Below, piece after piece: positions 3,362-38,768 of a stretch of 51,842 nucleotides of DNA; positions within the stretch are counted from its first letter, which is position 1; every line of letters starts with the position of its first letter. The stretch is from Patescibacteria group bacterium (GTDB lineage Bacteria; Patescibacteriota; 4484-211), in the NCBI GenBank assembly GCA_018818265.1, contig JAHISN010000078.1, positions 1-51,842 of the forward strand, given 5' to 3'. Under the pieces are notes generated by a model, which was not told where the DNA came from, made no database searches, and saw only the letters and a list, made by a program, of their open reading frames with translations. The position numbers and the translations under genes are program-made.

Positions 3362-3512
3362 TTGTAGCGGCGGCGCTTCCACGCGATGCCGCATGGCGTC
3401 GTAGCGCCGCGCCACGTCTGACGTGGCCGCGCCAGAAAGGGCCGCCTTCTTCGGATGCTAGGCTTCAGCCAGAGGCTGATCCGCCTTTGGCGGAAAAGCC
3501 TAGCCGCTACAA
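3362..3512. repeat. GC-rich composite REP-like element bounded by TTGTAGCGGC / GCCGCTACAA
   Basis: Left part is GTAG plus the imperfect palindrome GCGGCGCTTCCACGCGATGC-C-GCATGGCGTCGTAGCGCCGC. Middle part is GCCACGT-CTG-ACGTGGC. Right 56 nt (3457-3512) are identical to 46074-46129. Confidence 0.85.
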
Positions 3513-3763: not shown

Positions 3764-3773
3764 GATAAAACTT

Positions 3774-3802
3774 GCAAAGGCTAATTAGAAGGCAGCCTTT
3801 GC
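3774..3802 (+). terminator. Hairpin downstream of tRNA-Ser (possible terminator)
   Basis: GCAAAGGCT-11 nt-AGCCTTTGC gives a 9-bp stem. The downstream T-tract is weak. Confidence 0.35.
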
Positions 3803-3804
3803 TT

Positions 3805-4070
3805 AGTTGCCTCTGGCCACGTTAGTCCCGAGCTTTGCGAGGGATTTTACCGTGGCCACCGCGTGTCAGACGTGGCTCCGCAAATTTAAACGCGATTTTG
3901 TCGCATTAAGCTGAGCCGCGCGAAACTCTCATCGCGATGAGCCGCGTTTAAATCCGTTGCACGGATTTATCACGCGGCCATAACTAGACCGTGGCCACCC
4001 TGCCACGCTATACACTACGCAATGCTGCATAGCGTTGGCATTGCGTAGCGCATGGCATCGTATTTTGCGA
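3805..4070. repeat. Cluster of GC-rich palindromes and REP-like fragments
   Basis: ACCGTGGCCACC occurs twice. ATTTAAACGCG...CGCGTTTAAAT is an 11-bp inverted repeat. AAATCCGT-TGC-ACGGATTT is a hairpin. CTACGCAATGC-12 nt-GCATTGCGTAG lies at 4015-4048. No credible ORF. Confidence 0.7.
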
Positions 4071-4158
4071 TTGGGCCAACTCGAGGTGGAGTTGTATATC
4101 GCGCGCGCCGCAACGTTAGCATAAATCGAAAAAAAAGGTATGTTAGAATGTCCAAAGC

Positions 4159-6927: not shown

Positions 6928-7032
6928 TTGTAGCGGTTGAAGAACACGATCCTTTCTAACGCGGCGCTGCGACGCCATGCGCTACGCAATGCTGCATAGC
7001 GTTGGCATCGCGTGGAAGCGCCGCCGCTACAA
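6928..7032. repeat. GC-rich composite REP-like element bounded by TTGTAGCGGT / GCCGCTACAA
   Basis: The right part is the reverse complement of the 3362-3415 palindrome and carries an extra 23-nt segment. A fragment of it recurs at 14307-14337. Confidence 0.8.
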
Positions 7033-7066: not shown

Positions 7067-7099
7067 AGCAAGAAAGAATGGTATTTCCTGATTTTTCAC

Positions 7100-14301: not shown

Positions 14302-14306
14302 TAGCT

Positions 14307-14337
14307 ATGCGCTACGCAATGCTGACATCGCGTGGAA
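14307..14337. repeat. Fragment of the GC-rich REP-like palindrome in the rpsC-rplP spacer
   Basis: ATGCGCTACGCAATGCTG plus CATCGCGTGGAA match 6977-7017 apart from an internal deletion. Confidence 0.8.
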
Positions 14338-14795: not shown

Positions 14796-15014
14796 ATGAC
14801 AAAAAGGCAAGAGCAACTACAACAATTAAAAGCCATGGCAACCTCTCAGCTAAAATCTGAGGAGCAGAAAATTCGAAAAGGCTTAACCAATCTGCGCATT
14901 GATCTTAATATGGGACGATTAAAAGATACCAGTAAAATTAAAAAGGAAAAGAAAAAATTAGCGCGTGTACTAACGATACTTAACGAAAAACGCAGGGAAG
15001 AGGATAATAGTTAA
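14796..15014 (+). CDS. rpmC: 50S ribosomal protein L29
   Basis: Size, helical K/E-rich sequence, synteny. Confidence 0.88.
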   Translation: MTKRQEQLQQLKAMATSQLKSEEQKIRKGLTNLRIDLNMGRLKDTSKIKKEKKKLARVLTILNEKRREEDNS

Positions 15015-15090
15015 TTGATTAACTAGGTAATTAGTTAATTTGTTAACCAGTTAACCAATTACCTAATTAACGGGCAGACGAAGTCTGCCC
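15011..15090 (+). repeat. TAGGTAATTAG-word inverted repeat followed by an 8-bp GC hairpin
   Basis: TTAACTAGGTAATTAGTT pairs with AACCAATTACCTAATTAA. GGGCAGAC-GAA-GTCTGCCC lies at 15072-15090, 10 nt before the rpsQ ATG. Confidence 0.8.
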
Positions 15091-15100
15091 ACTCAAAACC

Positions 15101-15337: not shown

Positions 15338-15483
15338 AAGTTAAAAGTGAAAAGTTGCTGAAGTTTACCAGAGTTTAGAAGTTGTCTAATCCGTGGTTGC
15401 AAACACCCATTAAGCACCATGAGGGTTTCTTTGAATATAACATTTCTAACTTTTAACTTTTCATTTTTAACTTTTAACTTGAA
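15337..15483 (+). repeat. Long imperfect hairpin built of AAGTTAAAAGT words (rpsQ-rplN spacer)
   Basis: Left arm GAAGTTAAAAGTGAAAAGTTG. Right arm CTAACTTTTAACTTTTCATTTTTAACTTTTAACTTG, ending 2 nt before ATG 15484. Confidence 0.8.
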
Positions 15484-15860: not shown

Positions 15861-15941
15861 CTAGCCTTTTAGCTTCGCTAGCTTATTAGGAATACCTAGT
15901 GAAGCTAGTAAGTTAATGAAGCTAATGAAGCTAATGAAGCT
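15861..15941 (+). repeat. AGCT-word hairpin (rplN-rplX spacer)
   Basis: Left arm CTAGCCTTTTAGCTTCGCTAGCTTATTAGG. Right arm CCTAGTGAAGCTAGTAAGTTAATGAAGCTAATGAAGCTAATGAAGCT, running into ATG 15942. Confidence 0.85.
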
Positions 15942-16265
15942 ATGACAACAAACAAACTCGGAATCAAAAAGGGCGATAAAGTTCAAGTTATTACCGGGAA
16001 CTACCGCGGCAAACAAGGAGTTGTAGAGCGCGCACTGCCGAAAGAGAGGAAGGTTGTTGTTTCGGGCATTAACATCGTTAAGAGACATATGAAACCGCGC
16101 GGACAGCAAAAACCCGGTGGCATTATTGAAATAACCAAGCCCATTGATGTATCCAAGGTTATGTTCGTTTGTCCGAGTTGCAGCCAAAAAACACGAATCG
16201 GATACGACGCGAAAGGAAAAGAAAAGCATCGTATTTGCAAGAAATGCGGCAAGACAATTAGCTAA
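15942..16265 (+). CDS. rplX: 50S ribosomal protein L24 (with C-terminal CxxC...CxxC)
   Basis: KKGDKVQVITGNYRGKQGVV (KOW) and CPSC...CKKC. Confidence 0.93.
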   Translation: MTTNKLGIKKGDKVQVITGNYRGKQGVVERALPKERKVVVSGINIVKRHMKPRGQQKPGGIIEITKPIDVSKVMFVCPSCSQKTRIGYDAKGKEKHRICKKCGKTIS

Positions 16266-16355
16266 TTAGCTTATAGCTTGATTAGCTTTTTAGATGTACC
16301 CATCAGTCTAACTAAACTAATAAGCTAATGAAGCTAGTAAGCTAACGAAGCTAAC
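16262..16355 (+). repeat. AGCT-word hairpin (rplX-rplE spacer)
   Basis: Left arm CTAATTAGCTTATAGCTTGATTAGCTTTTTAG. Right arm ACTAATAAGCTAATGAAGCTAGTAAGCTAACGAAGCTAAC. Confidence 0.85.
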
Positions 16356-17513: not shown

Positions 17514-17648
17514 AAGAAGTTAAAAGTCAAAAGTCGTAGTTCAAAATTGAAAACTACCACAGGGTTTTCTAGTCCTGGGTTATTCTTACTAATTTTGAAT
17601 TTTGCATTTCAACTTTGCACTTTGCATTTTTAACTTTGAATTTGAAAT
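17514..17648 (+). repeat. Long imperfect hairpin of AAGTTAAAAGT / TTGAATTTTGCA words (rpsH-rplF spacer)
   Basis: Left arm 17514-17557 includes the GTAG-headed hairpin GTAGTT-10 nt-AACTAC at 17536-17557. Right arm 17589-17648 ends at ATG 17649. Confidence 0.8.
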
Positions 17649-19211: not shown

Positions 19212-19263
19212 AGGTAATTAGGTCCAGCTGAACTGGACCGGTAATTTTCAACTTTTAATTTTT
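19212..19263 (+). repeat. GGTAATT-flanked 7-bp hairpin plus AACTTTTAA words (rpsE-rplO spacer)
   Basis: GGTAATTA [GGTCCAG-CTGAA-CTGGACC, 19221-19239] GGTAATTT, then TTCAACTTTTAATTTTTAAC. Confidence 0.75.
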
Positions 19264-19308
19264 AACTTTTTCCGCCAGAGGCGGATCAGCCCTTGGCTGA
19301 AACTTGAA
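19264..19308 (+). repeat. 45-nt double-hairpin module identical to 2827-2871
   Basis: AACTTTTTCCGCCAGAGGCGGATCAGCCCTTGGCTGAAACTTGAA, ending 2 nt before the rplO ATG. Confidence 0.9.
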
Positions 19309-19310
19309 AC

Positions 19311-19760
19311 ATGCGCCTACATAATTTACCAAAAATCACCCAACGGAAAAAGAAACTTCTTGGGCGTGGGCCGGGAAGCGGCAAAGGAAAAACATCCGGA
19401 CGAGGCATGAAAGGGCAAAAAGCCCGATATAAAGTCCGTCCCGGCTTTGAAGGCCGCCAGCCCAGATTGACCAAGCGATTACCTAAACTAAGAGGGAAAG
19501 GGAGATTGTTGCCGCACAAGCCCAAACCAAAGACAATTGATATTGCGCGCCTCAACATATTCCGCGCCGGTTCACGGGTAACACCGGAAATACTGGTAGA
19601 AAAAGGCCTAGTTAAAAAAATCCCCCCTGCCGGCATTAAAATACTTGCCAAGGGCAAACTTGAAAAAAAACTAACCTTGGAAGGCTTTAAGATCTCTAAG
19701 GGCGCGAGAGAGCAGGTGGAAGAGTTGGGAGGGAAAATAAAGGAAATCTCAAGCGACTAA
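19311..19760 (+). CDS. rplO: 50S ribosomal protein L15
   Basis: MRLHNLPKI...GRGPGSGKGKTSGRGMKGQKAR. Confidence 0.95.
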   Translation: MRLHNLPKITQRKKKLLGRGPGSGKGKTSGRGMKGQKARYKVRPGFEGRQPRLTKRLPKLRGKGRLLPHKPKPKTIDIARLNIFRAGSRVTPEILVEKGLVKKIPPAGIKILAKGKLEKKLTLEGFKISKGAREQVEELGGKIKEISSD

Positions 19761-21274: not shown

Positions 21275-21856
21275 ATGACAATCGTAGTTATGGGCCCTCA
21301 GGGGTCCGGCAAATCAACTCAGGCAAAATTTCTGGCGGAGGAAATGGGACTGTTGTATGTCTCAACCGGAAATATTTGTCGAGAGGCTTCGGAAAAAGAC
21401 ACAGCCGAGGGCCGCAAGATTGCATGGCAGCTAAAGGAGGGTTTATTACCGCCAAGCGACCTCATGACCAAAATTCTCATTAACTGGCTAGATGAACATG
21501 GAAATGTTAAAGGCATCGTCACCGATGGTTATCCTCGGAGCCTAGAAAATGTTGAAGATATTGAAGAAAAGATACTCCCTGCCTACGGCCCCCTTGAGAA
21601 AGTTATTTACATTGACACATCCAAAGAAGAATGTCTTAAAAGACTAACCAAACGGGCCGAAATTGAACATCGGATTGATGAGACTCCCGAGGCAATCAGC
21701 ATGCGGCTAAAACTGTATTTTGAACGAACAGTTCCCGTACTGGATTATTATCGCGAGAAGGGACTTCTAGTTAAGATAAATGGGAATAAGGGTATTGAGG
21801 AAATACAAGAAGACATATTGAAAATAATTAACCCCCAACCCTCCATCACCATCTAA
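21275..21856 (+). CDS. adk: Adenylate kinase
   Basis: P-loop MGPQGSGKSTQAKFLAEE, DGYPRS, synteny after secY. Confidence 0.9.
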   Translation: MTIVVMGPQGSGKSTQAKFLAEEMGLLYVSTGNICREASEKDTAEGRKIAWQLKEGLLPPSDLMTKILINWLDEHGNVKGIVTDGYPRSLENVEDIEEKILPAYGPLEKVIYIDTSKEECLKRLTKRAEIEHRIDETPEAISMRLKLYFERTVPVLDYYREKGLLVKINGNKGIEEIQEDILKIINPQPSITI

Positions 21857-21893
21857 AAAGGTTTGCGCGTTCTGATTTTTTCACATAAAACAT

Positions 21894-21930: not shown

Positions 21931-23082
21931 ATGATCAGATCCGAGTTTATGGCCGCCGTTAATCAAATTTGCTCCGAGCGAGGCATTGAGCCCAAAGTAG
22001 TTATCGAGACACTTCAGAAGGCTATCCATGCAGCTTATCGTAAAGATTACGAAGATCATGAGGACGTTGAAGTCCAAATCAGCAAAAAAACCGGCGCCGT
22101 GAGAATACTGGAAGAAGGTAAAGATATCACTCCTCCAGGATTCGGCCGCATCGCGGCTCAAACAGCCAAGCAGGTTATTTTGCAGGGTGTGCGGGAGGCT
22201 GAAAAAGATGCCATTATTAATGAATACCAAGACAAAGTGGGTACGATAGTTTCGGGAATGCTTCAGCGGCGCGAGGGTCAAGACTGGATTGTTGGGTTAG
22301 GCCGTACAACAGGGACCCTGCCCCGTGAGGAACAGATTCACTACGAAGATTACCGCAACAACCAACGCTTATTCTTTTATATTAAAGAGATCAGTGAACA
22401 ACACCACAAAACGCAGATTGTTCTTTCGCGCTCTCACCAGGAACTTCTATGCGGTCTTTTTAAGCAAGAAATCCCCGAGATAGCAAATAAAGCTATTGAA
22501 ATTAAAGCGGTAGCCCGTGAGCCGGGGCACCGATCGAAAGTCGCCGTTGCCTCAACCCAAGACGGAGTTGATGCCGTTGGTTCCTGCGTAGGTCAGCGTG
22601 GTATACGGATACAAGCAGTAACTGATGAGCTTAACGGTGAAAGGATAGATGTTATTTTATGGAACGAAGCTCCAGAAAAGTTTATCTCCGCCGCCCTTTC
22701 GCCTGCTGATGTAACTAATATTAAAATCAACGAAAAAGAGGGTACCGCCTATGTACAGGTGCCTGATGATCAAATTTCTCTAGCTATTGGGAAAAAGGGA
22801 CAAAATGCCCGCTTGGCGGCAAAACTAACTGGCTGGCGCATCGACATCCACGGTGAAAAGGAATCGTTAGAACTGTCCCCGGCAGCAGAAGAGGGGTTAG
22901 AAGAGAAAGTTCCTGCCAATATCTTAACCCGTTTAGAAAAAGCCGAAACTAGCTGGGAAGAAGCAACAAAAATGAGCAGTGAAGAGCTTTCAGCCCTAAA
23001 GGGTGTTGGGGCGAAAACTGTGGAAAAAATTAGAGAGATTATAGAAAACTCAATCCCTAACGAAGTAAAAGAAGGTGAATGA
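21931..23082 (+). CDS. nusA: Transcription termination/antitermination factor NusA
   Basis: N-terminal domain, S1 and two KH domains (GSCVGQRGIRIQAV, AIGKKGQNARLAAKLTGWRIDI). Confidence 0.95.
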   Translation: MIRSEFMAAVNQICSERGIEPKVVIETLQKAIHAAYRKDYEDHEDVEVQISKKTGAVRILEEGKDITPPGFGRIAAQTAKQVILQGVREAEKDAIINEYQDKVGTIVSGMLQRREGQDWIVGLGRTTGTLPREEQIHYEDYRNNQRLFFYIKEISEQHHKTQIVLSRSHQELLCGLFKQEIPEIANKAIEIKAVAREPGHRSKVAVASTQDGVDAVGSCVGQRGIRIQAVTDELNGERIDVILWNEAPEKFISAALSPADVTNIKINEKEGTAYVQVPDDQISLAIGKKGQNARLAAKLTGWRIDIHGEKESLELSPAAEEGLEEKVPANILTRLEKAETSWEEATKMSSEELSALKGVGAKTVEKIREIIENSIPNEVKEGE

Positions 23083-23339
23083 CCAATGCCAGCTTGCCAT
23101 CCATCCTTACTCTACGAACATGTATTGGTTGTCATATTATCAATAAAAAAGAAGATATGCTGCGTCTTTCGCTCAATCCCAATCAGGAAGCTATTGTTAA
23201 CGGAAAGGGAGGGGCAGGAGGGCGTGGCGCTTATGTTTGTAACTTATCATGCCTAAAAAGAGCCCTGGAGAAAAATCAACTAAGTCGCGCCTTCCGGCAG
23301 AAAGTCAACCTCAACCGACTCATGAAGCTGGTCAGTTAA
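23079..23339 (+). CDS. ylxR: YlxR/DUF448 family RNA-binding protein
   Basis: LRTCIGCHIINKKEDMLRL...GRGAYVC, positioned between nusA and infB. Confidence 0.85.
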   Translation: MTNASLPSILTLRTCIGCHIINKKEDMLRLSLNPNQEAIVNGKGGAGGRGAYVCNLSCLKRALEKNQLSRAFRQKVNLNRLMKLVS

Positions 23340-24850
23340 TCTCCCGCCCCCCGATCGTCTGTTTTTTGGGCCATGTTGACCACGGCAAAACCAGTATTCT
23401 TGATTTTATCCGCCAAACCCATGTACAAAAAAGCGAGGCGGGCGGCATTACCCAATCTATTGGCGCTTGTCATGTGGAAGGTATTACTTTTATCGACACA
23501 CCAGGTCATGCCGCCTTTACAGCTATGCGCGCCCGTGGAGGACAAACGGCCGATATTGCCGTATTGGTTGTTGCCGCAGACGATGGGATAATGCCTCAAA
23601 CCATTGAGGCGATTGCTCACATTAAGGCGGCTGGTGTGCCCATGCTGGTGGCTATAAACAAGATGGATATACCGTCAGTTACTTCCGATAAAGTTAAGCA
23701 GCAATTAGTCGAACAGGGGATATTGCTGGAAGGGTGGGGTGGAGACGTTGTTAACGTGGAGTGTTCAGCAATAACCGGTAAGGGGGTTGACAATCTTTTG
23801 GAAATGTTAAAACTAATGGCAGAAATCGAGGAGTTTAAATCAGACCCCAAAGCTAGACCCGAGGGCATTTTACTGGAATCATTTTTAGATAACCGCCGCG
23901 GCCCGATTGCCACGGTTATTGTTAAGCAGGGAACCCTTGAAAAGGGACAAAATTTGGTTGCCGAAGACACTAGCGGTCGTATTAAAGGCCTCTGGGACTG
24001 GCAGGGAAAAATACTTAATAAGGTTGGTCCCGGTTTCCCAGCAGAAATTTTGGGTCTTAAAAACATTGTGCGCGGCGGAGTCAAGTTCACCGTCACGGGC
24101 ACAGGAAAAGAAGCACTGGCTTTGTGCAAGCCGACGCTTATAAAAGCGCCTGCTAAACCAAAGGCCAAACATGTAAAGAGCGACATTGACCAAAACAAAG
24201 ACGAGGAGGGAAATGATACAAGCGAAGAGGAAGAAAAAGTTAGACTAATTAAATTAGTAATTAAAACTGATACCGACGGCAGTCTGGACGCTTTACGTTA
24301 CTCTATTATCCATTTAGAAAACGAGAAAGTGCAAGTTCTCTTTGTACACGAAAGCGTGGGGAATATTACCGAGGCCGATGTTTTGCTCGCTCAAAGCAGT
24401 GGCGCTTCTATTGTAGGACTCAAGGTTAAAGCCGATGCTGTTGCTCGCCAGCTTATTAAGCAAGAGGGCGTTCCGACAAAGACCTACGAAATTATTTATC
24501 ACTTGCTGGAAGATTTGGCAAAAATTATTAAAGGGAAAGAGAAAGAAGGCGAATTGGTACGAACAGGTCTGGCCACGGTCTTAAAAGTATTTGTGCTTTC
24601 TAATAAATCTATGGTTGCTGGAAGCAAAGTGAAAGAAGGCGCGTTTAAACTGAACCAGCAAGTGAGAATTTGGCGAGACAAAAAACAGGTCGGTGAAAGT
24701 AGAATCGTTTCTCTGAAAATTCTTAAAAAGGAAATTAGAAAAGTCTCAGAGGGTGAGGAATGCGGCATTATCATTTCACCCGCGTTTGAATTTAAGCAAG
24801 GCGATATTATAGAAGCTATGGAAGAATCAAAAGTAGATTATTCGTTGTAG
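23249..24850 (+). CDS. infB: Translation initiation factor IF-2 (minimal form, about 33 aa before the G domain)
   Basis: RPPIVCFLGHVDHGKTS, DTPGHAAF, NKMD. No alternative in-frame start lies between 23249 and the G domain. Confidence 0.92.
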   Translation: MPKKSPGEKSTKSRLPAESQPQPTHEAGQLISRPPIVCFLGHVDHGKTSILDFIRQTHVQKSEAGGITQSIGACHVEGITFIDTPGHAAFTAMRARGGQTADIAVLVVAADDGIMPQTIEAIAHIKAAGVPMLVAINKMDIPSVTSDKVKQQLVEQGILLEGWGGDVVNVECSAITGKGVDNLLEMLKLMAEIEEFKSDPKARPEGILLESFLDNRRGPIATVIVKQGTLEKGQNLVAEDTSGRIKGLWDWQGKILNKVGPGFPAEILGLKNIVRGGVKFTVTGTGKEALALCKPTLIKAPAKPKAKHVKSDIDQNKDEEGNDTSEEEEKVRLIKLVIKTDTDGSLDALRYSIIHLENEKVQVLFVHESVGNITEADVLLAQSSGASIVGLKVKADAVARQLIKQEGVPTKTYEIIYHLLEDLAKIIKGKEKEGELVRTGLATVLKVFVLSNKSMVAGSKVKEGAFKLNQQVRIWRDKKQVGESRIVSLKILKKEIRKVSEGEECGIIISPAFEFKQGDIIEAMEESKVDYSL

Positions 24851-24890
24851 CGGCCATCCTTACCCCTTCCTCACCACCCCAAAAGGATGG
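24845..24890 (+). repeat. GTAG-headed hairpin overlapping the infB stop codon
   Basis: TTGTAGCGG (the TAG is the infB stop), then CCATCCTT-21 nt-AAGGATGG. Confidence 0.7.
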
Positions 24891-24918
24891 TATGTTCTGA
24901 TTTTTTCACATAGAAAAC

Positions 24919-24943
24919 AGGGCCGGCTGTTAAAACCGGCCCT
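24919..24943 (-). terminator. Hairpin terminator between the convergent genes infB and 24970-25629
   Basis: AGGGCCGG-9 nt-CCGGCCCT. On the minus strand it is followed by GTTTTCTA. Confidence 0.5.
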
Positions 24944-24969
24944 ATTGGCACTTGACTCCTGGCGCACTT

Positions 24970-25629
24970 CTACGCTGAGTGTTTGTGCCGCTTTCGGTCA
25001 ATGCGCCATAAGCGCAAGTGTGCAATAAGATAGTGTCCCATCCAACCTGCTAAAGACACCGCCATAGCGGCGTACAGCCCAGCGGAGCCGGACCATAAAC
25101 AAAGGACAGCTACCTTTGGAGTTACTCTCAGCGCTCCCTCCGCTTTCCTCTCGACAGCCAGTGCCGACAGAATAACGGCGACTGCGCCAGCCACCCAAAG
25201 TGGAAAATAGGCGGCAAAACTCTCCACTATTGTTGCCAGTAACAGCGTATCTATAAACAACAGGTAGAACATCATGAACAAACGGTGGGACAAAGGCTCC
25301 TGCCAAATCTGGACAAGCTCCTTTCCCCGTTGTTTCTCCGAAACGCTAGCCATGTAAATTCCGGAGATTAGTAACTGAGATACTACTCCGACCCCAAATC
25401 CCCGGACTACTAAGCGCAGATCGGGCGCTTTGAAATACCGAAGCGAAGGGATTGTCAACAATAGCATCGCAGCTAGGTCAATGGCGACCATTCTCCACCA
25501 CTCCGCTCTTGTCGAGACCTTTTCCTCGCCGCCACAATGCCGGCGATAAATAAGAAAAGCCATTACAGCCAAGCACAAAATTACCTTCCACATTTTTCTT
25601 TCAACCTCCAAATTTTCTTTTGACATCAA
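24970..25629 (-). CDS. Hypothetical polytopic membrane protein (high-GC gene)
   Basis: About six hydrophobic segments. Sampled GC is about 55%, against about 40% in neighbouring genes. Confidence 0.55.
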   Translation of the reverse strand: MMSKENLEVERKMWKVILCLAVMAFLIYRRHCGGEEKVSTRAEWWRMVAIDLAAMLLLTIPSLRYFKAPDLRLVVRGFGVGVVSQLLISGIYMASVSEKQRGKELVQIWQEPLSHRLFMMFYLLFIDTLLLATIVESFAAYFPLWVAGAVAVILSALAVERKAEGALRVTPKVAVLCLWSGSAGLYAAMAVSLAGWMGHYLIAHLRLWRIDRKRHKHSA

Positions 25630-25756
25630 GCTCAGCCCTCAAAATTTGTCCAATTCTTTGTAAAGAGCCCCGCGCGCACGCTATGAGCCGTAGTATAACA
25701 TAGCAAATCACCTATTGCAAACAGAGATATGCCAGCGCACTGCAGTACCATACAGT

Positions 25757-26416
25757 TCAGTACTCTCTAGTGGAAATAACATTGCGGAGGGAAACAGAGG
25801 ACTTGTATTCCTGACGATTGGGAGCATCCAAACCCTGCTCTAAAGTTATCTCAATTATTACCTGGTCGGGACGCAATGCTCCCCCATCAGTTACTACAAA
25901 ATTTAATGAAGCTATATTAATACCGGTAACGCGGTCGTCGCTTGTTATAACTCCCGCCCCCACAGCGCTATCCTCACAGTCGGAAAGGGATTTAAGAAGT
26001 CGTCCGTTAAAATCATCGGTTGGTCCGGGAGTTTCCAATTGAAGTATTACTGTTTCGCATCTTCCGTTTTGCTTATATTCTAACGAATCAAGGTCCAAGG
26101 TTGCTGTTAACGAACCCCCGCCGCCAGTCAGGTTACCGGCCCCCTGTACAATTCTGGTAACTTCTTCCATTATTCTGGAGCCTTCTTTACGTAAGTTGTT
26201 ACTGATTACTGCCTTAGCATACAACTGAGTCACAAACAGCAGGATTGTTATTCCCACCCCCGCTACCACTGCCAGTACTCCCAGCGATATGAGTACCTCA
26301 ATGAGGGTATAGCCGGAGGGAAACCGATTATCGCCCCTTGAGCTAAGTTTCGCCCGTCTCGTTTTGTTAAACCAACCTCTCTTACTATTTAATTTCGTAC
26401 TTTTAATTTTAAACAT
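25757..26416 (-). CDS. Type IV pilin-like protein (prepilin-type N-terminal cleavage/methylation domain)
   Basis: Class III signal G|YTLIEVLISLGVLAVVAGV after an unusually long basic leader of about 35 aa. Confidence 0.8.
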   Translation of the reverse strand: MFKIKSTKLNSKRGWFNKTRRAKLSSRGDNRFPSGYTLIEVLISLGVLAVVAGVGITILLFVTQLYAKAVISNNLRKEGSRIMEEVTRIVQGAGNLTGGGGSLTATLDLDSLEYKQNGRCETVILQLETPGPTDDFNGRLLKSLSDCEDSAVGAGVITSDDRVTGINIASLNFVVTDGGALRPDQVIIEITLEQGLDAPNRQEYKSSVSLRNVISTREY

Positions 26417-26544
26417 AGCTGTACCTTGTATTCATTCTACACTGCCAGAACATTAAGTCAATTAATAGAACTTGTTTGCACCCGCTCTTGGAGAGATAGG
26501 CGGGTATTCGGCAGGCGAGGCTGGTTGCGCACTTTGACTCAAAT

Positions 26545-26564
26545 TGTAGTAGCGCAATCTTGCC
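26545..26564 (+). repeat. REP-like variant TGTAGTAGCGCAATCTTGCC
   Basis: Identical 20-mer at 31981-32000. Confidence 0.8.
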
Positions 26565-26631
26565 GTGTGCCTGAAAGGGTGATACCCTGCGTGGTTCATC
26601 CTCACGTGATACTGCGGTCATTGCGACAAAT

Positions 26632-26654
26632 TGTAGTAGCGCAATTTATTGCGC
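26632..26654 (+). repeat. REP-like 23-nt hairpin (stem GCGCAAT)
   Basis: TGTAGTA followed by GCGCAAT-TT-ATTGCGC. Confidence 0.85.
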
Positions 26655-26676
26655 GCAGAATGAATTCTGCTATTAC
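26655..26676 (-). repeat. REP-like hairpin (stem GCAGAAT), abutting the previous copy
   Basis: GCAGAAT-GA-ATTCTGC followed by TATTAC. Confidence 0.85.
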
Positions 26677-27046
26677 GGGTAGAAATCGTAATTATACCCC
26701 GCTTCAATCAATTAATTCGTTTGTAAATAGAATACGCCCCCATTTAATTGAGTGAAGCTGACACAGCGCTATCAAACCACATAATGTCTTTTCGTATCAC
26801 CAAGCCCAAGCCTAGTGGTTATTAACTTTACTTTCGCCCCATAGTGGGCTATAATGAGTGTATGAGGTGTTAAAAGCACCTCAAATGGCACCTTATATTG
26901 TAAATCAAAAAAAGGCGTCCTTGCGATGTAAATGAGGCTAATATACTCCTTTATGTTGCTGGGCCGCTTTTCGCACCATTGTGGGCGAGATCCTATTAAT
27001 GGATTCTAAGCGGCTGCGCTTTTCACATAAAATGGGAGGTTTTAAA

Positions 27047-27427
27047 ATGAAGCATTTTTCTCAGCTTTGGTCAGGTTTAGCGATCATTGTCATGGTGGCG
27101 GCGATTGCCTTGGTCGGTGGAGAACCCGCCGAAAGTCCGGAAGGGTTCACGCGCTGGCCCCCCGCGTACGAGGAGGGGGGAACTATCAATGTGTCGCCGC
27201 CTTGGACCGCCCGCTGGCACACGGGCCTGAACGTCGCCGGCGAGGTGCCAGTAGTCGTCTTCTACGAGGACGGCAGTGGAAATCACGTCACTGCTGACTA
27301 TGACTACGTCGGCAAAGGTGAGTACCAGATCGAACTCACCGATGCCACCCTAGTTTTCCGGGTCTTCCCGTATGAGGGCCCAGGTGGAGTGAAGTTTGAC
27401 CTCTACTACCGTGTAGAGACCAAGTAG
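27047..27427 (+). CDS. Hypothetical small secreted or anchored protein (very high-GC gene)
   Basis: GGGAGG SD 7 nt upstream of ATG 27047. Signal/anchor MKHFSQLWSGLAIIVMVAAIALVGG. A sampled 60-nt stretch is 72% GC. Confidence 0.6.
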   Translation: MKHFSQLWSGLAIIVMVAAIALVGGEPAESPEGFTRWPPAYEEGGTINVSPPWTARWHTGLNVAGEVPVVVFYEDGSGNHVTADYDYVGKGEYQIELTDATLVFRVFPYEGPGGVKFDLYYRVETK

Positions 27428-27438
27428 CAGCAAAAGGA

Positions 27439-27517
27439 AGGGCGGGATGCGTCTCTAATTCAGTTGCCTAACTAGCAATGAGTTATGAGGCGCAATATCC
27501 CGCCCTCTTCTTTTTTG
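27439..27517 (+). terminator. Rho-independent terminator with a long interrupted stem
   Basis: AGGGCGGGAT...ATCCCGCCCT, with inner GCGTCTC/GAGGCGC pairing, followed by CTTCTTTTTT. Confidence 0.6.
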
Positions 27518-27563
27518 CACACATTTTTTCAAGAATCCAAAATTGGAAATCACTGGACACTGC

Positions 27564-27586
27564 GCGAAATTAATTTCGCTATTACA
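27564..27586 (-). repeat. REP-like 23-nt hairpin (stem GCGAAAT)
   Basis: GCGAAAT-TA-ATTTCGC followed by TATTACA. Confidence 0.85.
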
Positions 27587-27593
27587 ATTAGCC

Positions 27594-27616
27594 TGTAATA
27601 GCAGAATTCATTCTGC
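27594..27616 (+). repeat. REP-like 23-nt hairpin (stem GCAGAAT)
   Basis: TGTAATA followed by GCAGAAT-TC-ATTCTGC. Confidence 0.85.
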
Positions 27617-27690
27617 GCATATCTACCTCTGGAAACGGCGGTCCCACAACATATTGCCATGGCATGCTTTAGGGTCGCGCTTGCATGTAA

Positions 27691-27724
27691 AATAGGGTTT
27701 AACCCTATTTTAGGGTTAAACCCT
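27691..27724. promoter_or_regulatory. Two adjacent 13-nt palindromes AGGGTT-N-AACCCT (candidate operator) upstream of the GT2 promoter
   Basis: AATAGGGTTTAACCCTATT (27691-27709) and AGGGTTAAACCCT (27712-27724), with centres 18 nt apart. They are followed by TTGACT (27735-27740), an 18-nt spacer and CATAAT (27759-27764). Confidence 0.45.
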
Positions 27725-27783
27725 CTGCTTAAATTTGACTTGAATAGACACTCTTTGTCATAATAAGGCAGAATTGACCTCTT

Positions 27784-28731
27784 ATGAACAAAAATGTTCC
27801 CTCTGTCGCCATTATCACCATTAACCTAAACTTAAAAAGGCTTACCGAGAGCTTTATTGACGAAGTTGAAAAACAAAGTTACCCAAGCTTTCATCTTTAC
27901 ATTATTGACAATGGTTCGCTTAAAGAACAGAAAATTGATGATAAATCTCTTCAAGCGCCATGGTTGACATATCATCAACTAGATAAAAACACCGGATTCA
28001 CCGGCGGTAATAATAAAGGCATTGAACTGGCACTTAAAGACGGCCATAAGTTTATCTGGCTGGTTAATAACGATACTTCCCTGGAATTGGACTGTCTGGA
28101 GAAACTGGTTGATTGCTTGGGTCAGAACCCGCAAGTGGGCATTGTTGGCCCCAAAATTCTTTATGAAAACCCACCAGATATAATTTGGTTTGCTGGAGGT
28201 AAAATTAATTGGAAAAACCCGTTCCCTTATACTGTCTGTACCCATATAGGAGAACGAATCAAAGATAAAGGACAGTTTAATGAGTCTAAAGAAGTTGATT
28301 TTATTACCGGCTGCAGCATGCTGATTCGGCGAGAAGTTCTGGAAAAAATCGGGAGATTGGATGATGATTATTTCGCTTATTTTGAAGATTCCGACTTTTG
28401 CCTGAGAGCAAAGAATGCTGGCTGGATGAGTAATTACTGTCCGCAAGCAATAATGCGGCACCAAGTGGGAGCTTTGAGCGGTGTTACTTCGCCGCGCTCG
28501 TCTTATTACCAAATAAGAAACAGCTTGCTTTTTGTGACCCGCTGGGGAACTTTGTCAAGTCAATTCCTGGCTTATCTAAACGCTGTCATCATCACCTTCA
28601 AAAACATTATCAAACTGCTTATACCCGCTAAGCGCGCCTTTGCCCGCGCGCAGTTAAGGGCCGTTTTTGATTTTGCTAGGCGTAGATTTGGGGGACTTGA
28701 AGAAACAAATGACACACCGACATATGCCTAG
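27784..28731 (+). CDS. Glycosyltransferase family 2
   Basis: IITINLN...YIIDNGS...WLVNNDT...AYFEDSDFCLR (DxD-like). Confidence 0.85.
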   Translation: MNKNVPSVAIITINLNLKRLTESFIDEVEKQSYPSFHLYIIDNGSLKEQKIDDKSLQAPWLTYHQLDKNTGFTGGNNKGIELALKDGHKFIWLVNNDTSLELDCLEKLVDCLGQNPQVGIVGPKILYENPPDIIWFAGGKINWKNPFPYTVCTHIGERIKDKGQFNESKEVDFITGCSMLIRREVLEKIGRLDDDYFAYFEDSDFCLRAKNAGWMSNYCPQAIMRHQVGALSGVTSPRSSYYQIRNSLLFVTRWGTLSSQFLAYLNAVIITFKNIIKLLIPAKRAFARAQLRAVFDFARRRFGGLEETNDTPTYA

Positions 28732-28751
28732 ATCATAAGACGGCTAAATTA

Positions 28752-29018
28752 CTACTTATAAATACCGCCGCGATAACCAACCTTGTAAACTTCCAGCCAC
28801 TGTTGTTTTTCATTCTGATAAAAGAGAATACGAACATTGCCTAGCCTTAGTCTCCAAGCGTGGCGCTTGGCAGATAATTTTTTAAGGTTGGGGATATCTT
28901 GGGTCGTAGAAAAATATTCGCCTAACTTGTCTAGAGCTCTAGTAACTTTATTGGCATCACATGGATGGAGGGCATTGATCTGTTTAACAACTCGGCGGTC
29001 AATATAGACTTTATACAT
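28752..29018 (-). CDS. RelE/ParE-family type II toxin
   Basis: 88 aa with KKLSAKRHAWRLRLGNVRILFYQ...VYKVGYRG. 8-nt overlap with the upstream antitoxin gene. Confidence 0.75.
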   Translation of the reverse strand: MYKVYIDRRVVKQINALHPCDANKVTRALDKLGEYFSTTQDIPNLKKLSAKRHAWRLRLGNVRILFYQNEKQQWLEVYKVGYRGGIYK

Positions 29019-29289
29019 TAATATCTTTCTTTGTCTTTTCCCAAAAAATCAACTCCGAAGAAGTCTTACGAGCCAGCTCAAGCTCATTCAAATCAGAAAC
29101 ATCTTCAAATCTCTCCATCAGGGTTTCAAAATCTTCCCAGCTTAAAAGTACTCCTATCGGCTCAGCCCGATTAAATACATAAAGAGGACTTTCCTTCTGA
29201 CGCGCAAGCGCAAATAAGGAAATTGGATCGGTTCTTAAGTCGGTTATATTCTTTACTAATTCTTTTCTAATCATGAGCTTATCATACAC
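29011..29289 (-). CDS. Phd/YefM-like type II antitoxin
   Basis: 92 aa with PLYVFNRAEPIGVLLSWEDFETLMERFED, located upstream of and overlapping the toxin gene. Confidence 0.7.
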   Translation of the reverse strand: MYDKLMIRKELVKNITDLRTDPISLFALARQKESPLYVFNRAEPIGVLLSWEDFETLMERFEDVSDLNELELARKTSSELIFWEKTKKDINV

Positions 29290-29319
29290 TTTAACAACCC
29301 TATTGTCAATGGCAAATAG

Positions 29320-31944
29320 TCATTTGTTGAACGTCAGCTCCCCCTTCTTATCCACCCCAATCTTGACTGTATCCCCCGGCATAAACTCTTCTCCAATAAT
29401 CTTTTCCGATAGGAAATTTTCAATACGGCGCTGGATGGTGCGGCGCAGAGGACGAGCGCCAAATTGGGGGTCAAAGCCAATTTCAGCAATTTTTTCCCGG
29501 GCCTTTGTATTTACTTCGAGTTTAATTCCCTGCGCGTTAGTTAGTCTTTCGGTTTCTTCTAAAAGAAGATCAACTACCAGTAGGATTTGCTCTTTTGTGA
29601 GGGAATGAAAGATAACAAATTCGTCCACTCGGTTTAGAAATTCGGGCCTAAAATTTTGTTTTAATAGTTCTTCAACTTGCTTTCCCAGTTTATCCTGCGG
29701 AATATTATCTTCCTGAGCTTTTTGAATTAAGGAACTCCCCAAATTGGATGTCATAATAATTATGGTATTTCTAAAGTTTACCGTGCGGCCCTTGCCATCA
29801 GTGAGCCGTCCGTCCTCCAGAACTTGCAGGAGCAGGTTGAAAATGTCTGCATGGGCTTTTTCGATTTCGTCCAGCAGAATAATGGAAAAGGGATGCCGAC
29901 GGACTTTTTCGGTTAATTGCCCACCTTCTTCAAAGCCAACATATCCAGGTGGCGAGCCGATTAGCCTCGCTACCGAGTGGCGTTCCTGATATTCGCTCAT
30001 ATCCAACCGAACAATGGCCTCATCAGAACCATAAAGAGCTTCGGCTAAAACCTGACTTAGATGAGTTTTACCCACACCGGTAGGGCCAAGAAATACAAAT
30101 GAACCAATGGGACGAGTTTTACTTTTTAGCCCCGCTCGGGAACGACGCACTGCTTCAGCAACCAGATTAACAGCTTCGGCCTGACCAATAACCTTTTCGT
30201 GTAATTTCTTCTCCAAATTTAGAAGCTTTTCCCGTTCTTCTTCGGTAAGTTTGGTTACGGGGATACCAGTCATTTTGGAAACAACACTGGCAATATCTTC
30301 TATAACAACTTCTGGTTGTTCAGTCCCGCGAGTATGCTGCCAAATTTCTTCAATTTCTTTACGCGACTCCTCTAATTTATTAAGTTCTTTCTGAATTTTC
30401 TTAACACGCTCTTTCTCCTTAGCTCTTTCAGCGGCCTCTTTCTCCTGTTCCGATCTTTGAATTTGATCTTTTAATTGCACCAAATTCTCCGGCGGCTCAA
30501 TAGCCCTAAGACGAACATGTGCCGAAGCCTCATCAATTAGGTCAATAGCTTTATCCGGCAGGAACCGGTCGGCAATGTAGCGATCAGAAAGCCGCGCCGC
30601 CGCCTCAATAGCTTCATCGGTAATTTTCACGCGATGATGAGCTTCGTACCGATCACGCAAACCAATAAGAATTTTCATTGTTTCCTCTACTGTGTTTTCG
30701 GGAATAATAATAGATTGAAAACGGCGTTCCAGAGCGGCGTCCTTCTCCACATATTTTTTGTATTCGCTTAAAGTTGTAGCCCCAACGGCCTGTAGATCTC
30801 CACGCGCTAAAGCTGGCTTTAAAATATTAGCGGCATCAATAGCGCCCTCGGCGCCGCCAGCCCCTATCAAGGTGTGCAGTTCGTCAATAAAGAGAATAAT
30901 TTTGCCCTTGGCTTCTACAATTTCATCCAAGGCCTCTTTTAGGCGCTTTTCAAATTCGCCGCGATACTTAGTACCAGCGACCATACCGGCCAAATCAAGT
31001 GCTATAACACGTTTATCTTTAATTAAATCCGGAACCTCGCCCTTTATGATACGCATGGCCAAGCCTTCGGCAATGGCTGTTTTACCCACGCCGGGTTCGC
31101 CAATTAAGACGGGATTATTCTTGGTGCGGCGGGATAGAATATTAATCACGCGCCCAATTTCGTTTTGCCGGCCAATGACGGGATCTAATTTGCCTTCGTG
31201 AGCCATTTGCGTTAAGTCACGGGAAAACTGATCTAGCGTAGGGGTGGAGGATGGTTCAGCGGCTTTTTCGCCTTCTTTAAGGCCTTCTCCAACAAGTTTT
31301 ATTACTGCTGAGCGAGCCTTTGGTAAATCTAATCCGAACTTCTTTAGAGTTTGGGCGGCCAGTCCCTCGCCCTCGCGGATTAAACCTAAGAGAAAATGTT
31401 CCGAACCTACATAATTATGGTTAAGCTGGCGGGATTCATCATAAGCTAATTGTAAGGCACGCTTGGTGCGTGGTGAGATGTCGGGAATTTCCTCTTTGCT
31501 GGCGCCTTTGGGAAGAGTGTTTATTAAATACTTGGCTAGTTCCTGCGGCTTAATACCAGCCTCCTGCAATACCTTAGCGGCAACTTCGTCCTCCTCTGTT
31601 ACAGCCAACAGCAGGTGCTCTGTGTCAATTGTCTGATGATTCATCTCCACAGCCTGCTGTGCCGCCTGCTGGATAGTCTTCTTAGCTCGCTGGGAAAATT
31701 TTTCGGTAATATCTACTGCTTCCTCCCGCGGAGGCTGACGAAAGGCAGAGAAGGGGGAATCGCCGAAAAAACTATCAAAGGGGGAGCGAAGGGATTCACC
31801 TTCGGGATCCGCTCCATTGCGCGACCCTGCCCGCGCTTGGCGGGAACACACATCACAGACATTGGTCACCTGACGGCCTTTCCCGGTTACCGTTATTCGT
31901 TTGGTGGTTGCGGGACGCTCCCCGCAAATGTCGCATAGGATCAT
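29320..31944 (-). CDS. clpC: ClpC-type AAA+ chaperone (Clp ATPase) with an N-terminal C4 zinc-ribbon extension
   Basis: Clp_N repeats, two Walker A motifs ([25 protein letters not shown]), short middle domain. The N-terminal 35 aa read CDICG-x22-CDVC. Confidence 0.9.
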
Positions 31945-31980
31945 ACTTCTACAATGTATAGCTATCCGAAATTGAATTTA

Positions 31981-32000
31981 TGTAGTAGCGCAATCTTGCC
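31981..32000 (+). repeat. REP-like variant TGTAGTAGCGCAATCTTGCC
   Basis: Identical to 26545-26564. It lies in the clpC upstream region. Confidence 0.8.
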
Positions 32001-32096
32001 TATATTGTACCAGAAGTTAAAAAGGGGAGTTTTCTAAAGATACGGAGATTTGTGGGACGCAGCGACAGAGGTGCCGTCTGCAAAAATGTCGACACA

Positions 32097-34205: not shown

Positions 34206-34277
34206 AGACTAGATATTTTCCCTAGATACTCATCATTCAAAGTCATTAAGCGATTAAGTTAATAAACGATTGGACAA

Positions 34278-34520
34278 TTACAATCCAATTAACTTCAATA
34301 ACTCTTCCATCCTTCCCTGACTAAGGCCGACACAATAGACATAAAGGCTAAAGATAGCGGTTAACCAAAAAAGGGTAAAATGGGGGAGCCATTTTCGAAA
34401 CCATTGCCGAAACCATTGCCGAAACCATTGCCGAAACCATTGCCGAAACCATTGCCGAAACCATTGCCGAAACCATTGCCGAAACCATTGCTCCCGCAAT
34501 TTGGGTTTAACTGATTCCAT
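34278..34520 (-). CDS. Small membrane-anchored protein with a (QWFR)8 repeat
   Basis: MESVKPKLRE-(QWFR)x8-KWLPHFTLFWLTAIFSLYVYCVGL. Lies 72 nt upstream of, and co-oriented with, the GT-C-like gene. Confidence 0.5.
   Translation of the reverse strand: MESVKPKLREQWFRQWFRQWFRQWFRQWFRQWFRQWFRQWFRKWLPHFTLFWLTAIFSLYVYCVGLSQGRMEELLKLIGL
34396..34491. repeat. Perfect tandem repeat, 12 nt x 8 (CGAAACCATTGC)
   Basis: Eight identical units counted directly. They are in frame within ORF 34278-34520. Confidence 0.95.
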
Positions 34521-34574
34521 TAATGAATATTTTACCAGAAAAAGTTATGATACACTGTTGGTATTCTCCCGAAT

Positions 34575-34970
34575 ATGGAAAAAATAATTGGAATTACCTC
34601 AGAACTAATAACCTACCTTAGAACTCTTTTGAGTGATATTTTTACGACTTCCGCAGGGCTGTATTTACTGCTTCTGGCTATAGAAAAAACGAAACCCGGG
34701 TTTGTGGGTAACGCAATTTCGGAACAGGTCTTTTTGTATATAACTATAGCTGCAGTCGGATTATTAATTTTGCTACCTAAAGAAAGAATCGGGATTGAAA
34801 GGAGAACCAATTTGCTAACATATTTGTGGGTGATAACAGCAGCCATACTGGGCGGCTATATTGTCTATAAAGACACGCCCAGCCTCGGGACCACCGGCAT
34901 CGTCATCGGCGTTTTGACCTCGCTCTTGATTGTATCATTGTCAATGATAGTAAGAAGTGAGCAGTCCTAG
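34575..34970 (+). CDS. Hypothetical small membrane protein (about 4 TM)
   Basis: Hydrophobicity pattern only. Confidence 0.5.
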   Translation: MEKIIGITSELITYLRTLLSDIFTTSAGLYLLLLAIEKTKPGFVGNAISEQVFLYITIAAVGLLILLPKERIGIERRTNLLTYLWVITAAILGGYIVYKDTPSLGTTGIVIGVLTSLLIVSLSMIVRSEQS

Positions 34971-35084
34971 GCCCAAAGTTGTAAAAAGCGGAATTAAACC
35001 GATTAAATTTTCTGGCCGATTGCAGTTGCCAGATCACTTAATCGCTCTTTTCCTAGCTTTTTTTCGAGTATCCAGGCATTCCTA

Positions 35085-35987: not shown

Positions 35988-36028
35988 CCCGCCCGCACCA
36001 TTGACAAATGTCCAGCAAAGACCTGCTG

Positions 36029-36706: not shown

Positions 36707-37099
36707 TTTTAATAATAACTAAAGATGTCACATTACAAGAATGCACTAGAAACATCTTTTTAAGAATAACGTGGAAAACCTACGGTTTTCCTTTGGGAAA
36801 ATTGACATTTGGTATTCAATAGAACAATTTTCCACATTTACTATTTCTAGTGTGAGGATAAAATGTTATATCTATAGCAAAAACTAAATGGTTTCTGCTC
36901 GGTTGAACCTACCCTACACAGTCTTGGTAACTCAGAACTAATCCTCTATGACTTTAGTAAAGGAAGACAACTTCAGTATAGCATATGGTCAGCAAGCGTC
37001 AATCTCAAAACAACCGACCGCCGGGAACTCCAAAACGGTTTGTAACAATACCAGTTAACTGTTAATATGTATATTCAACATTTTGTGTACCCATAAACA

Positions 37100-38749: not shown

Positions 38750-38756
38750 TCATAGC

Positions 38757-38762
38757 TATAAT
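38757..38762 (+). promoter_or_regulatory. Consensus TATAAT 6 nt upstream of the comM ATG (leaderless-type geometry)
   Basis: catagcTATAATcagtttATG, with no SD. Confidence 0.4.
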
Positions 38763-38768
38763 CAGTTT

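Follow-up and report, generated by a model that had tools for sequence, protein, structure and literature searches.

In the 51,842-nucleotide contig JAHISN010000078.1 of a Patescibacteria group bacterium (GenBank assembly GCA_018818265.1; hereafter the window, meaning this whole stretch of DNA), five spacers between ribosomal-protein genes are filled by long hairpins built from short words that contain AGCT. The contig belongs to a metagenome-assembled genome, and its S11 protein is 100% identical to one recorded for a 'Patescibacteria group bacterium'. A preliminary description, made from the letters and open reading frames (ORFs) of the window, had noticed these hairpins together with a one-armed array behind dnaA; it saw in them a repeat family that had colonised the most highly expressed operons, either as an RNase III-type processing site, an mRNA stabiliser or a translation insulator, or as a tolerated selfish element. 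The observation as a whole was confirmed: the elements are a true repeat family. Our explanation, tentative and with a probability of about 45%, is that they are a family comparable to the repetitive extragenic palindromic (REP) sequences, made of slippage-prone word arrays that are filtered by their orientation relative to the adjoining genes and that would form a hairpin when both arrays share a spacer. Among the options of the preliminary description, the tolerated selfish element fits the evolutionary evidence best. Its repeat family and its ribosomal-operon location stood, whereas a conserved structure and a restriction to ribosomal operons did not.

All five hairpins are on the forward strand and have, as had been described, TAGCTT-type words on the 5' side, a unique loop of 4-23 nt and AAGCTA-type words on the 3' side; the gene names given to their surroundings were all upheld by NCBIfam (L14, L24, L5, L36, S13, S11, S4, DnaA, IF-1, S17). 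The rplN/rplX element (15861-15942), flanked by the L14 and L24 genes, is composed of a 5' arm at 15861-15890, a loop at 15891-15894 and a 3' arm at 15895-15942, the final A of which is the A of the rplX ATG. In the rplX/rplE element (16260-16354), the rplX stop codon TAA (16263-16265) is inside the 5' arm (16260-16293); the loop (16294-16316) and the 3' arm (16317-16354) follow, and rplE starts with the ATG at 16359. The rpmJ/rpsM element (40760-40846; arms 40760-40794 and 40809-40846, loop 40795-40808) precedes the rpsM ATG at 40852, the rpsM/rpsK element (41259-41356; arms 41259-41285 and 41309-41356, loop 41286-41308) precedes the rpsK ATG at 41362, and the rpsK/rpsD element (41764-41869; arms 41764-41798 and 41814-41869, loop 41799-41813) precedes the rpsD ATG at 41875. 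Except for rplX/rplE, where the stop is within the stem, the stem base lies 3-8 nt past the stop codon, and the stems end 1-7 nt before the ATG. In 27 elements, the stem base lies at median distances of about 3 nt from the stop and about 7 nt from the following ATG. Several elements overlap a gene, in that their first word supplies the TAG of the stop codon or their final AAGCTA word ends in the A of the ATG. The arms are imperfect: an exact-seed inverted repeat of at least 14 nt joins them in rpsK/rpsD only (41780-41794 / 41846-41860).

We compared the predicted RNA folds with those of dinucleotide shuffles. In the order given above, the folds had energies of -33.3, -31.9, -31.9, -33.7 and -34.1 kcal/mol, with z-scores of -4.66, -5.47, -5.11, -2.39 and -3.18. 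The predicted stems are 30-36 bp long, interrupted by internal loops of 1-3 nt every 6-8 bp, and would thus offer RNase III the length it requires (a largely uninterrupted RNA duplex of about 20 bp or more). The words themselves are over-represented in the window (TAGCTT, 31 against 13.5 expected; AAGCTA, 38 against 17.9), and the pattern AAGCTAN{2,3}AAGCTAN{2,3}AAGCTA has 10 matches in it compared with none in 100 shuffles. The spacers measure 89, 93, 96, 111 and 114 nt, exactly the range first reported, and they are unusual, since in the other genomes sampled a distance of -4 to about 20 nt mostly separates rplN from rplX and rplX from rplE. Homology among the copies was likewise borne out. 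Four left arms have the same order, TAGCTT-A-TAGCTT-NNN-TAGCTT-NT-TAG, with 85-89% identity, and the right arms can be aligned; a shared 17-mer was found at 40815 and 41315, with copies at 1-2 mismatches at 15920, at 41838 and in the dnaA array. The loops of the window copies are unrelated to one another. Because 7-, 9- and 8-nt words follow in the same order in the four left arms, the copies must be homologous and not just alike in composition.

A mini-ORF in the 3' arm was considered as a shared feature and rejected, as it occurs before rplX (AUG AAG CUA repeated, with a UGA overlapping the start) and not before the other four genes. An antisense ORF of 122 codons (15861-16229, minus strand) that begins inside the rplN/rplX hairpin was judged spurious. 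Such repeats and spacers can mislead gene callers, since this spurious ORF starts in a hairpin and other ORFs run into elements. The S11 homologue P0003 in the database was called as a protein of 207 aa with an odd N-terminal extension.

The array behind dnaA (48783-48853, forward strand; repeat family D4) is made of eight TAGCTTCAY words of 9 nt, which occupy 48783-48850. It had been described as a left arm only, and this holds: the first TAG is the stop codon of dnaA (47385-48785), no AAGCTA partner arm is present, and the fold has a z-score of -1.37. In the surroundings of dnaA, three DnaA boxes are present in 60 nt upstream of the gene (47302-47361), two being perfect (TTATCCACA), more DnaA box-like sites are found downstream of the TAGCTT array (48860-49172), recF is divergent from dnaA, and dnaN does not follow dnaA. 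Because of the boxes on both sides, the divergent recF and the absence of dnaN after dnaA, this region is likely a replication origin.

The unit of the family was defined from 244 words in 34 elements, in which AGCT is preceded by a T and followed by a T with 91% conservation in each case, whereas the 1-3 linker bases are variable; the word period is 7 nt in 29 cases, 8 nt in 86 and 9 nt in 68. AGCT is one of several word types, as adjoining spacers of the window contain hairpins of AAGTTAAAAGT/AACTTTTAACTT and GGTAATTAG-type words. In the rpsQ/rplN spacer (15338-15483, forward strand; fold -35.3 kcal/mol; families D3 and D13), AAGTTAAAAGT words after the stop and AACTTTTAACTT words before the ATG are predicted to pair over a long range. 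The rpsH/rplF spacer (17514-17648, forward strand; D3 and D13) has AAGTTAAAAGT/AACTTTG words as in 15338-15483, and the rpmC/rpsQ spacer (15015-15071, forward strand) has a hairpin of TTAACTAGGTAATTAG-type words (Tandem Repeats Finder, 15008-15054, period 8), directly followed by a GC-rich hairpin at 15072-15091. In total, hairpins or arrays of other words occupy ribosomal-protein operon spacers at 15015-15100, 15338-15483, 17514-17648, 19212-19310, 42505-42581 and 43883-44150; their words are AAGTTAAAAGT/AACTTTTAACTT, TTAACTAGGTAATTAG and TTTGACT/TTTGGAATTTGTGA. Immediately before rplN, rplF and rplO there are UUAACUUU words, which appear to resemble the 'epsilon' translational enhancer of phage T7 gene 10, UUAACUUUA.

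Word arrays of 7-9 nt, often as inverted pairs of other words, were also common according to Tandem Repeats Finder in the loci fetched from other genomes. The ribosomal-protein operon of UBA2135 (L033) resembles that of the window, with four AGCT hairpins as well as hairpins of other words. The four copies in L033 have a mean identity of 87% including the loop, which indicates a recent proliferation, and in all three complete junctions the hairpin stops precisely at the ATG. High-G+C metagenome contigs (L258, L270-L274; 57-61% G+C) have 7-nt GCAGATT/AATCTGC hairpins in the rplN/rplX spacer, so that the word-hairpin class is apparently not confined to Patescibacteria. The same contigs, together with L250 and L255, have in the rplX/rplE spacer a conserved stem, CAAGGCCGGA...TCCAAGCCCTTGAGGAG, just before rplE; this stem might be an S8-type autoregulatory site.

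We searched other genomes, one per species, for three AAGCTA words. At least 118 loci were found. The genes in the fetched loci are crude ORF calls, and some labels of metagenome-assembled genomes (MAGs) are given as recorded. Among the matches listed, 42 records bear names of the Patescibacteria type, and about 12 further MAGs, without a label or with an odd one, look alike; the names include Saccharibacteria, Parcubacteria, Peregrinibacteria/Peribacteria, Altimarinota, Nomura-, Vogel-, Buchanan-, Dojka- and Yanofskybacteria and Moraniibacteriota. A complementary arm within 90 nt, that is, a two-arm hairpin, was present at 24 of the listed Patescibacteria-type loci, and the architecture seen in the window is repeated in about 25 other Patescibacteria genomes. 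The listed matches in named non-Patescibacteria isolates were mostly coding or simple tandem repeats, and none of the 120 listed viral contigs with the same word array had a real hairpin; these contigs serve as a negative control, because they contain word arrays and no hairpins. The genomes with elements span 29-54% G+C, from Peregrinibacteria to Saccharibacteria and Parcubacteria.

Are these elements tied to highly expressed operons? In the window, a first ribosomal-protein cluster runs from rplC to rplO, then secY and adk (10.4-21.9 kb), and a second comprises infA-rpmJ-rpsM-rpsK-rpsD-rpoA-rplQ and then rplM-rpsI (40.4-45.0 kb; NCBIfam and Pfam). All five AGCT hairpins fall in the 28 of 68 junctions that are ribosomal (p = 0.009), as do all eleven word hairpins of the window (p = 1.4e-5), and about 19 of 35 Patescibacteria hairpins among the matches listed adjoin ribosomal-protein genes. 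The proposed colonisation of expressed operons is supported to this extent. The elements are not restricted to ribosomal operons, since they also occur beside other genes, at convergent and divergent junctions and as one-armed arrays. Non-ribosomal neighbours of hairpins are atpE, ssb, nusB, ftsE, polA and similar genes, and one-armed arrays precede fusA, atpG, recA, nusA, hrcA, rpsT, rpsC and secD/secF. Of some 35 listed hairpins, about 28 are flanked by co-directional genes, 3 by convergent and 2 by divergent ones.

The elements obey an orientation rule. Among the matches listed, the order TAGCTT...AAGCTA exceeds the opposite order by about 35 to 3 (p < 1e-6); however the genes are arranged, this order places UAGCUU behind stops and AAGCUA ahead of starts when read in sense. 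One-armed arrays, which are not symmetric in orientation, keep to this rule at start codons: among those listed, AAGCUA is in the sense strand in a ratio of 17:3 (14:3 conservatively). The earlier remark that the five window copies share one polarity is correct in that this order is used and the reverse almost never, and it is in part trivial, since either strand of a palindrome gives the same reading. No signal other than the orientation rule links the elements to the direction in which genes are expressed. Consensus scans found no promoter or terminator inside the AGCT elements, the 3' flanks of which are A-rich; an intrinsic terminator was rejected, as no element has a GC-rich stem with a U-tract. 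A strong promoter is predicted before infA and another before rplM. Being inside operons and having no promoter or terminator consensus of their own, the elements should be transcribed within polycistronic mRNA. Shine-Dalgarno motifs are rare in the host, with 10% of window genes (5 of 52 long ORFs) having one, and similar motifs precede 39 of 334 genes (12%) in array-bearing tiles compared with 44-49% in control loci. In Bacteroidetes that lack Shine-Dalgarno sequences, mRNA structure and key upstream nucleotides tune initiation, according to one study (PMC6847099), and this suggests a possible reason why AAGCUA, and not UAGCUU, is tolerated before starts.

If the hairpins were dedicated intercistronic RNA stem-loops, selected as RNase III-type processing sites, as exonuclease barriers or as both, they would set the stability of each cistron in multi-subunit operons, and cleavage would leave the downstream cistron with a short A-rich leader. 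We regard this as possible and rather unlikely. It would account for stable predicted stems without a U-tract, for a location within the operons of the ribosome, ATP synthase and SecDF, and for arms that are kept better than loops; the halves of a cut hairpin would resemble the one-armed arrays before fusA, recA, nusA and rpsT and behind dnaA. There is also a precedent in Clostridium, where stem-loops set the stoichiometry of an operon (PMC4423207, PMC8219983). As an RNA structure, the hairpin does not look conserved. In 27 co-directional elements, the sense strand was no more stable than the antisense strand (mean difference -0.07 kcal/mol; 11 against 16 elements; p = 0.73), and there was no excess of G-U pairs in the sense strand (58 against 65). 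The structure-preserving substitutions that a conserved hairpin called for were not found: chimeras of a left arm and a right arm taken from different genomes fold as well as cognate arms (-28.8 against -30.1 kcal/mol, p = 0.13), so that pairing is a property of the word and not of co-evolving arms. The one-armed arrays and the unequal periods of paired arms also count against a dedicated stem-loop. Within one element, the periods are 9 and 7 nt in L077 and L042, and L080 has a homogenised AAAAAGCT arm; since the arms of one element differ in period, each array apparently evolves separately, as is expected of slippage. Finally, equal stoichiometry of ribosomal proteins needs no differential stability. 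The 52-kb window contains no rnc gene.

A further objection to a dedicated stem-loop is that the hairpin is absent at the same junction in the closest relatives. In genomes with 71-75% identical S11, the elements are absent from L001, L003 and L004, and L005 has an AGCT hairpin at rpmJ/rpsM. The closest relative found (L325, S11 87% identical) has kept an rpsM/rpsK spacer of a length similar to that of the window, with residual sequence similarity; complementary arms are missing from it, and its fold is not significant (z = -0.3). This orthologous L325 spacer is decayed. A related genome with such a spacer but without paired arms was among the outcomes that the preliminary description had named as speaking against it, and L325 partly provides that outcome. 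In metagenomes we found no close relative of the L24 protein, the best being 64% identical. The elements turn over rapidly.

The explanation that we favour joins these observations as follows. The unit is a 7-9-nt word, consisting of an invariant TAGCTT hexamer and 1-3 variable linker bases, of an intergenic family that extends through the Patescibacteria. Arrays of this word probably lengthen and shorten by slipped-strand mispairing, and whole elements may be copied to new gene junctions within a genome. Selection would act mainly by retaining those copies whose orientation suits the flanking genes, with U-rich UAGCUU after the stop and A-rich AAGCUA before the start, in a host almost devoid of Shine-Dalgarno initiation. 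When both arrays come to lie in one stop-to-start spacer, they are necessarily complementary and would give a bulged stem of 30-36 bp in the polycistronic mRNA. The hairpin is best read as a consequence of the words, and not as a proven regulator or a structure conserved for regulation; if it influences mRNA decay, processing or coupling at all, this would be secondary.

Several facts weigh against this explanation. Pfam scans of the proteins in the 52-kb window found no transposase domain, and no target-site duplication was seen at the L033 copies. Slippage was not seen directly, the sole strain pair (L005/L006) being identical. In two Peribacteria, the arms at one orthologous junction are about 94% identical and the flanks far less alike; because the arms are better kept than the flanks, they must be under some constraint or be homogenised. 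The tightness with which stems bridge stop and start in 27 elements, and the exact ends of the L033 copies at the ATG, could reflect function or target specificity and not filtering. Elements are enriched about ten-fold beside ribosomal-protein genes and other core, highly expressed ones (the rough baseline being 5-10%), which a purely neutral repeat does not predict. Since neutrality explains neither this enrichment nor the tight bridging of stop and start, functional readings stay alive.

The first of these, after the dedicated stem-loop, is translational coupling, which we find doubtful. According to this view, the stem would join the stop to the next start, and a terminating ribosome would either melt the stem base, so as to release the start of the downstream gene, which lacks a Shine-Dalgarno sequence, or reinitiate across the stem. 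The short median distances from the stem to both codons agree with it, as do the cases in which the first word provides the stop UAG or the final AAGCUA ends in the A of the AUG, and the near absence of Shine-Dalgarno motifs in the host. Coupling by RNA unfolding over a long spacing is also known from rpmI-rplT (+52 nt) and from genes VII/IX of phage f1 (PMC12548453). However, in a thermodynamic model, a ribosome placed on the stop raised the unpaired probability of positions -15 to +3 just from 0.44 to 0.50; the gain is small because the freed words re-pair in another register. In a library screen, structure just 3' of the stop correlated negatively with coupling (PMC12548453), and the same elements are found between convergent and divergent genes.

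Recognition of the word itself deserves about as much doubt. Here, a conserved trans factor would bind the TAGCTT/AAGCUA hexamer, and the arrays would provide multivalent binding; the factor might be an RNA-binding protein, a component of the ribosome that serves as a Shine-Dalgarno-independent enhancer, or a protein of DNA binding or DNA uptake. An invariant hexamer with variable linkers and period is consistent with such binding, and so are the use of one word from Peregrinibacteria to Saccharibacteria and Parcubacteria at 29-54% G+C, the orientation rule, and the position of one-armed AAGCUA arrays 5-30 nt before start codons. By analogy, TAACTGA repeats lie a few nt before starts in lineages with few ribosome-binding sites (PMC4679880). 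No candidate factor was found, and AACTTTT, CCTAATT, GGTAATTAG and GCAGATT words form equivalent hairpins, both in these operons and in other genomes. The apparent universality of the word is partly a matter of ascertainment, because the AGCT word was used in the search. Loops of 4-23 nt and imperfect arms render the extrusion of a cruciform from double-stranded DNA unlikely on general grounds.

No less speculative is a combination of these ideas, in which TAGCTT/AAGCUA would signal expression throughout the Patescibacteria. Highly expressed genes would preferentially have AAGCUA arrays as a Shine-Dalgarno-independent 5' leader and UAGCUU arrays as a 3' trailer. Where two cistrons abut, leader and trailer would pair into a double-stranded RNA module, to be crossed by reinitiation or to be cut by RNase III or a word-specific protein into monocistronic mRNAs with short leaders. 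If true, this would be an unrecognised mode of operon expression in bacteria without Shine-Dalgarno initiation.

It is very improbable that the elements are low-complexity sequence due to chance, an artefact of assembly or a known leader RNA of ribosomal-protein genes: the arms are indeed simple repeats and the rpsM start has a sub-threshold Rfam match to Alpha_RBS (RF00140, the S4-binding leader of rpsM), but shuffle controls exclude chance, the same architecture with intact flanking genes is found in dozens of independent assemblies, and the match, rejected at 23.0 bits against a gathering score of 38, is carried by the N-terminal coding sequence of S13 and a generic hairpin. At the gathering score, no Rfam family was found anywhere in the window; permissive scans gave chance miRNA-like hairpins besides Alpha_RBS.

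Literature searches found no published description of AGCT-word elements, and no Rfam family was found for them. The closest known systems are REP sequences, with their composite bacterial interspersed mosaic elements (BIMEs), and the REP doublets (REPINs) of Proteobacteria. These too are extragenic and multi-copy, and have two inverted halves that form a hairpin with conserved arms and a variable loop; they often lie inside operons between co-directional genes and are transcribed in the mRNA. REPs can protect upstream mRNA. They differ in several respects. A REP unit is an imperfect palindrome of 20-40 nt, whereas an AGCT arm is a tandem array of non-palindromic 7-9-nt words, the number and period of which vary even between the arms of one element. 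AGCT alignments have no GTAG-type end (GTAG/CTAC), the hosts are Patescibacteria, and in the 52-kb window no REP-associated tyrosine transposase (RAYT, a Y1 transposase) was seen. REPINs show selfish-like dynamics within genomes (PMC3116915).

In other respects, the elements resemble the TAACTGA heptamers of Beggiatoaceae, Cyanobacteria and Bacteroidetes (PMC4679880) and the short tandemly repeated repetitive sequences (STRRs) of Cyanobacteria. Both are short tandem words that contain a stop codon and lie a few nt before starts, are over-represented in translation genes and inside ribosomal-protein operons where ribosome-binding sites are rare, and have a patchy phylogenetic spread with no known mechanism. 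Like these tandem words of about 7 nt near a start, AGCT words have periods of 7-9 nt, and the 3' arm or lone array ends 0-30 nt before the ATG. However, TAACTGA heptamers are direct repeats without predicted structure, with one indirect repeat reported (PMC4679880), whereas AGCT loci mostly have two inverted arrays with a 30-36 bp predicted stem that fills the stop-to-start spacer; the word (TAGCTT plus linker) and the host lineage differ as well.

Processing sites between cistrons are a third comparison. The early genes of phage T7 have RNase III sites between their cistrons. Operons subject to selective RNA processing and stabilisation (SRPS) have stable stem-loops without a U-tract between the cistrons of complex subunits (PMC4423207, PMC8219983), and the predicted AGCT stems resemble these. 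Those of SRPS operons and of T7 are locus-specific with mapped processing sites; the AGCT elements are a dispersed family without covariation, known from sequence. Miniature inverted-repeat transposable elements (MITEs) are also short and non-coding with inverted ends, and the near-identical L033 copies at several junctions are reminiscent of them. However, these copies have TAA/TAG to their left and ATG to their right and show no direct duplication, the AGCT arms are word arrays and not unique terminal inverted repeats, and no parent transposon is known. A CRISPR array or a TIGR array (of tandem interspaced guide RNAs) was rejected because the AGCT words are contiguous (1-3-nt linkers), with a single unique loop and no regular spacers; the architecture of TIGR-Tas arrays is unrelated.

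The window has other features of interest. A GC-rich repeat family, CCGCCAGAGGCGGATCAGCCCTTGGCTGA, forms a predicted double hairpin and occurs on both strands (2776-2877, 19257-19314, 3427-3512 and 46044-46129; D6 and D7); it lies immediately upstream of a ydjM-like gene (2874) and of rplO (19311), with 93% identity over 58 nt. The rpsM/rpsK spacer of the relative L325 contains a GGCGGATCAGC motif. Another dispersed repeat that may form hairpins, GCTACGCAATGCTGCATAGCGTTGGCAT(C/T)GCGT, is present at 4000-4046, 6967-7013 and 14304-14324 (D10 and D12), with one partial copy in the rpsC/rplP spacer. The motif GTTCTGATTTTTTCACATA is found upstream of nusA and downstream of infB (21839-21890 and 24864-24915) and also at 7080-7099 (D9); the nusA copy includes the palindrome TTCACATAAAACATTTGTGAA, and the motif could be an operator or belong to a promoter. 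Between adk and infA, which are usually adjacent in the spc/alpha ribosomal-protein cluster, about 18 kb (21931-40322) contain nusA-ylxR-infB, ClpB, a histidine kinase, a Mg-chelatase-like ATPase, an ABC ATPase and several ORFs without a Pfam match. Within this region, eight tandem 12-nt units (CGAAACCATTGC; 34396-34491) are inside an 80-codon minus-strand ORF (34278-34520) with no Pfam match. After tRNA-Ser(CGA), a non-coding stretch of 395 nt (3764-4158, 51% G+C) has a very stable predicted fold (-154.7 kcal/mol) and no Rfam match at the gathering score. Genes of mobile or defence type are found at both ends of the contig, namely RhuM-family and DUF2130 genes at its start (474-2674) and a DUF4143 AAA ATPase and an AbiEii toxin with an upstream partner ORF at its end (49173-51804).

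Spacers of 90-115 nt in the most conserved operons are unexpected, because the genomes of Patescibacteria are tiny and densely packed. The elements show repeat DNA invading the tightest gene junctions of a cell. The rule by which a U-rich word follows the stop and an A-rich word precedes the start provides a handle on translation start in a large uncultivated group that is poor in Shine-Dalgarno sequences. If the hairpins are processed or mediate coupling, they would be a simple, transferable intercistronic module; if they are selfish, they would represent a new kind of extragenic palindrome, made of slipping words, and would be useful as strain markers.

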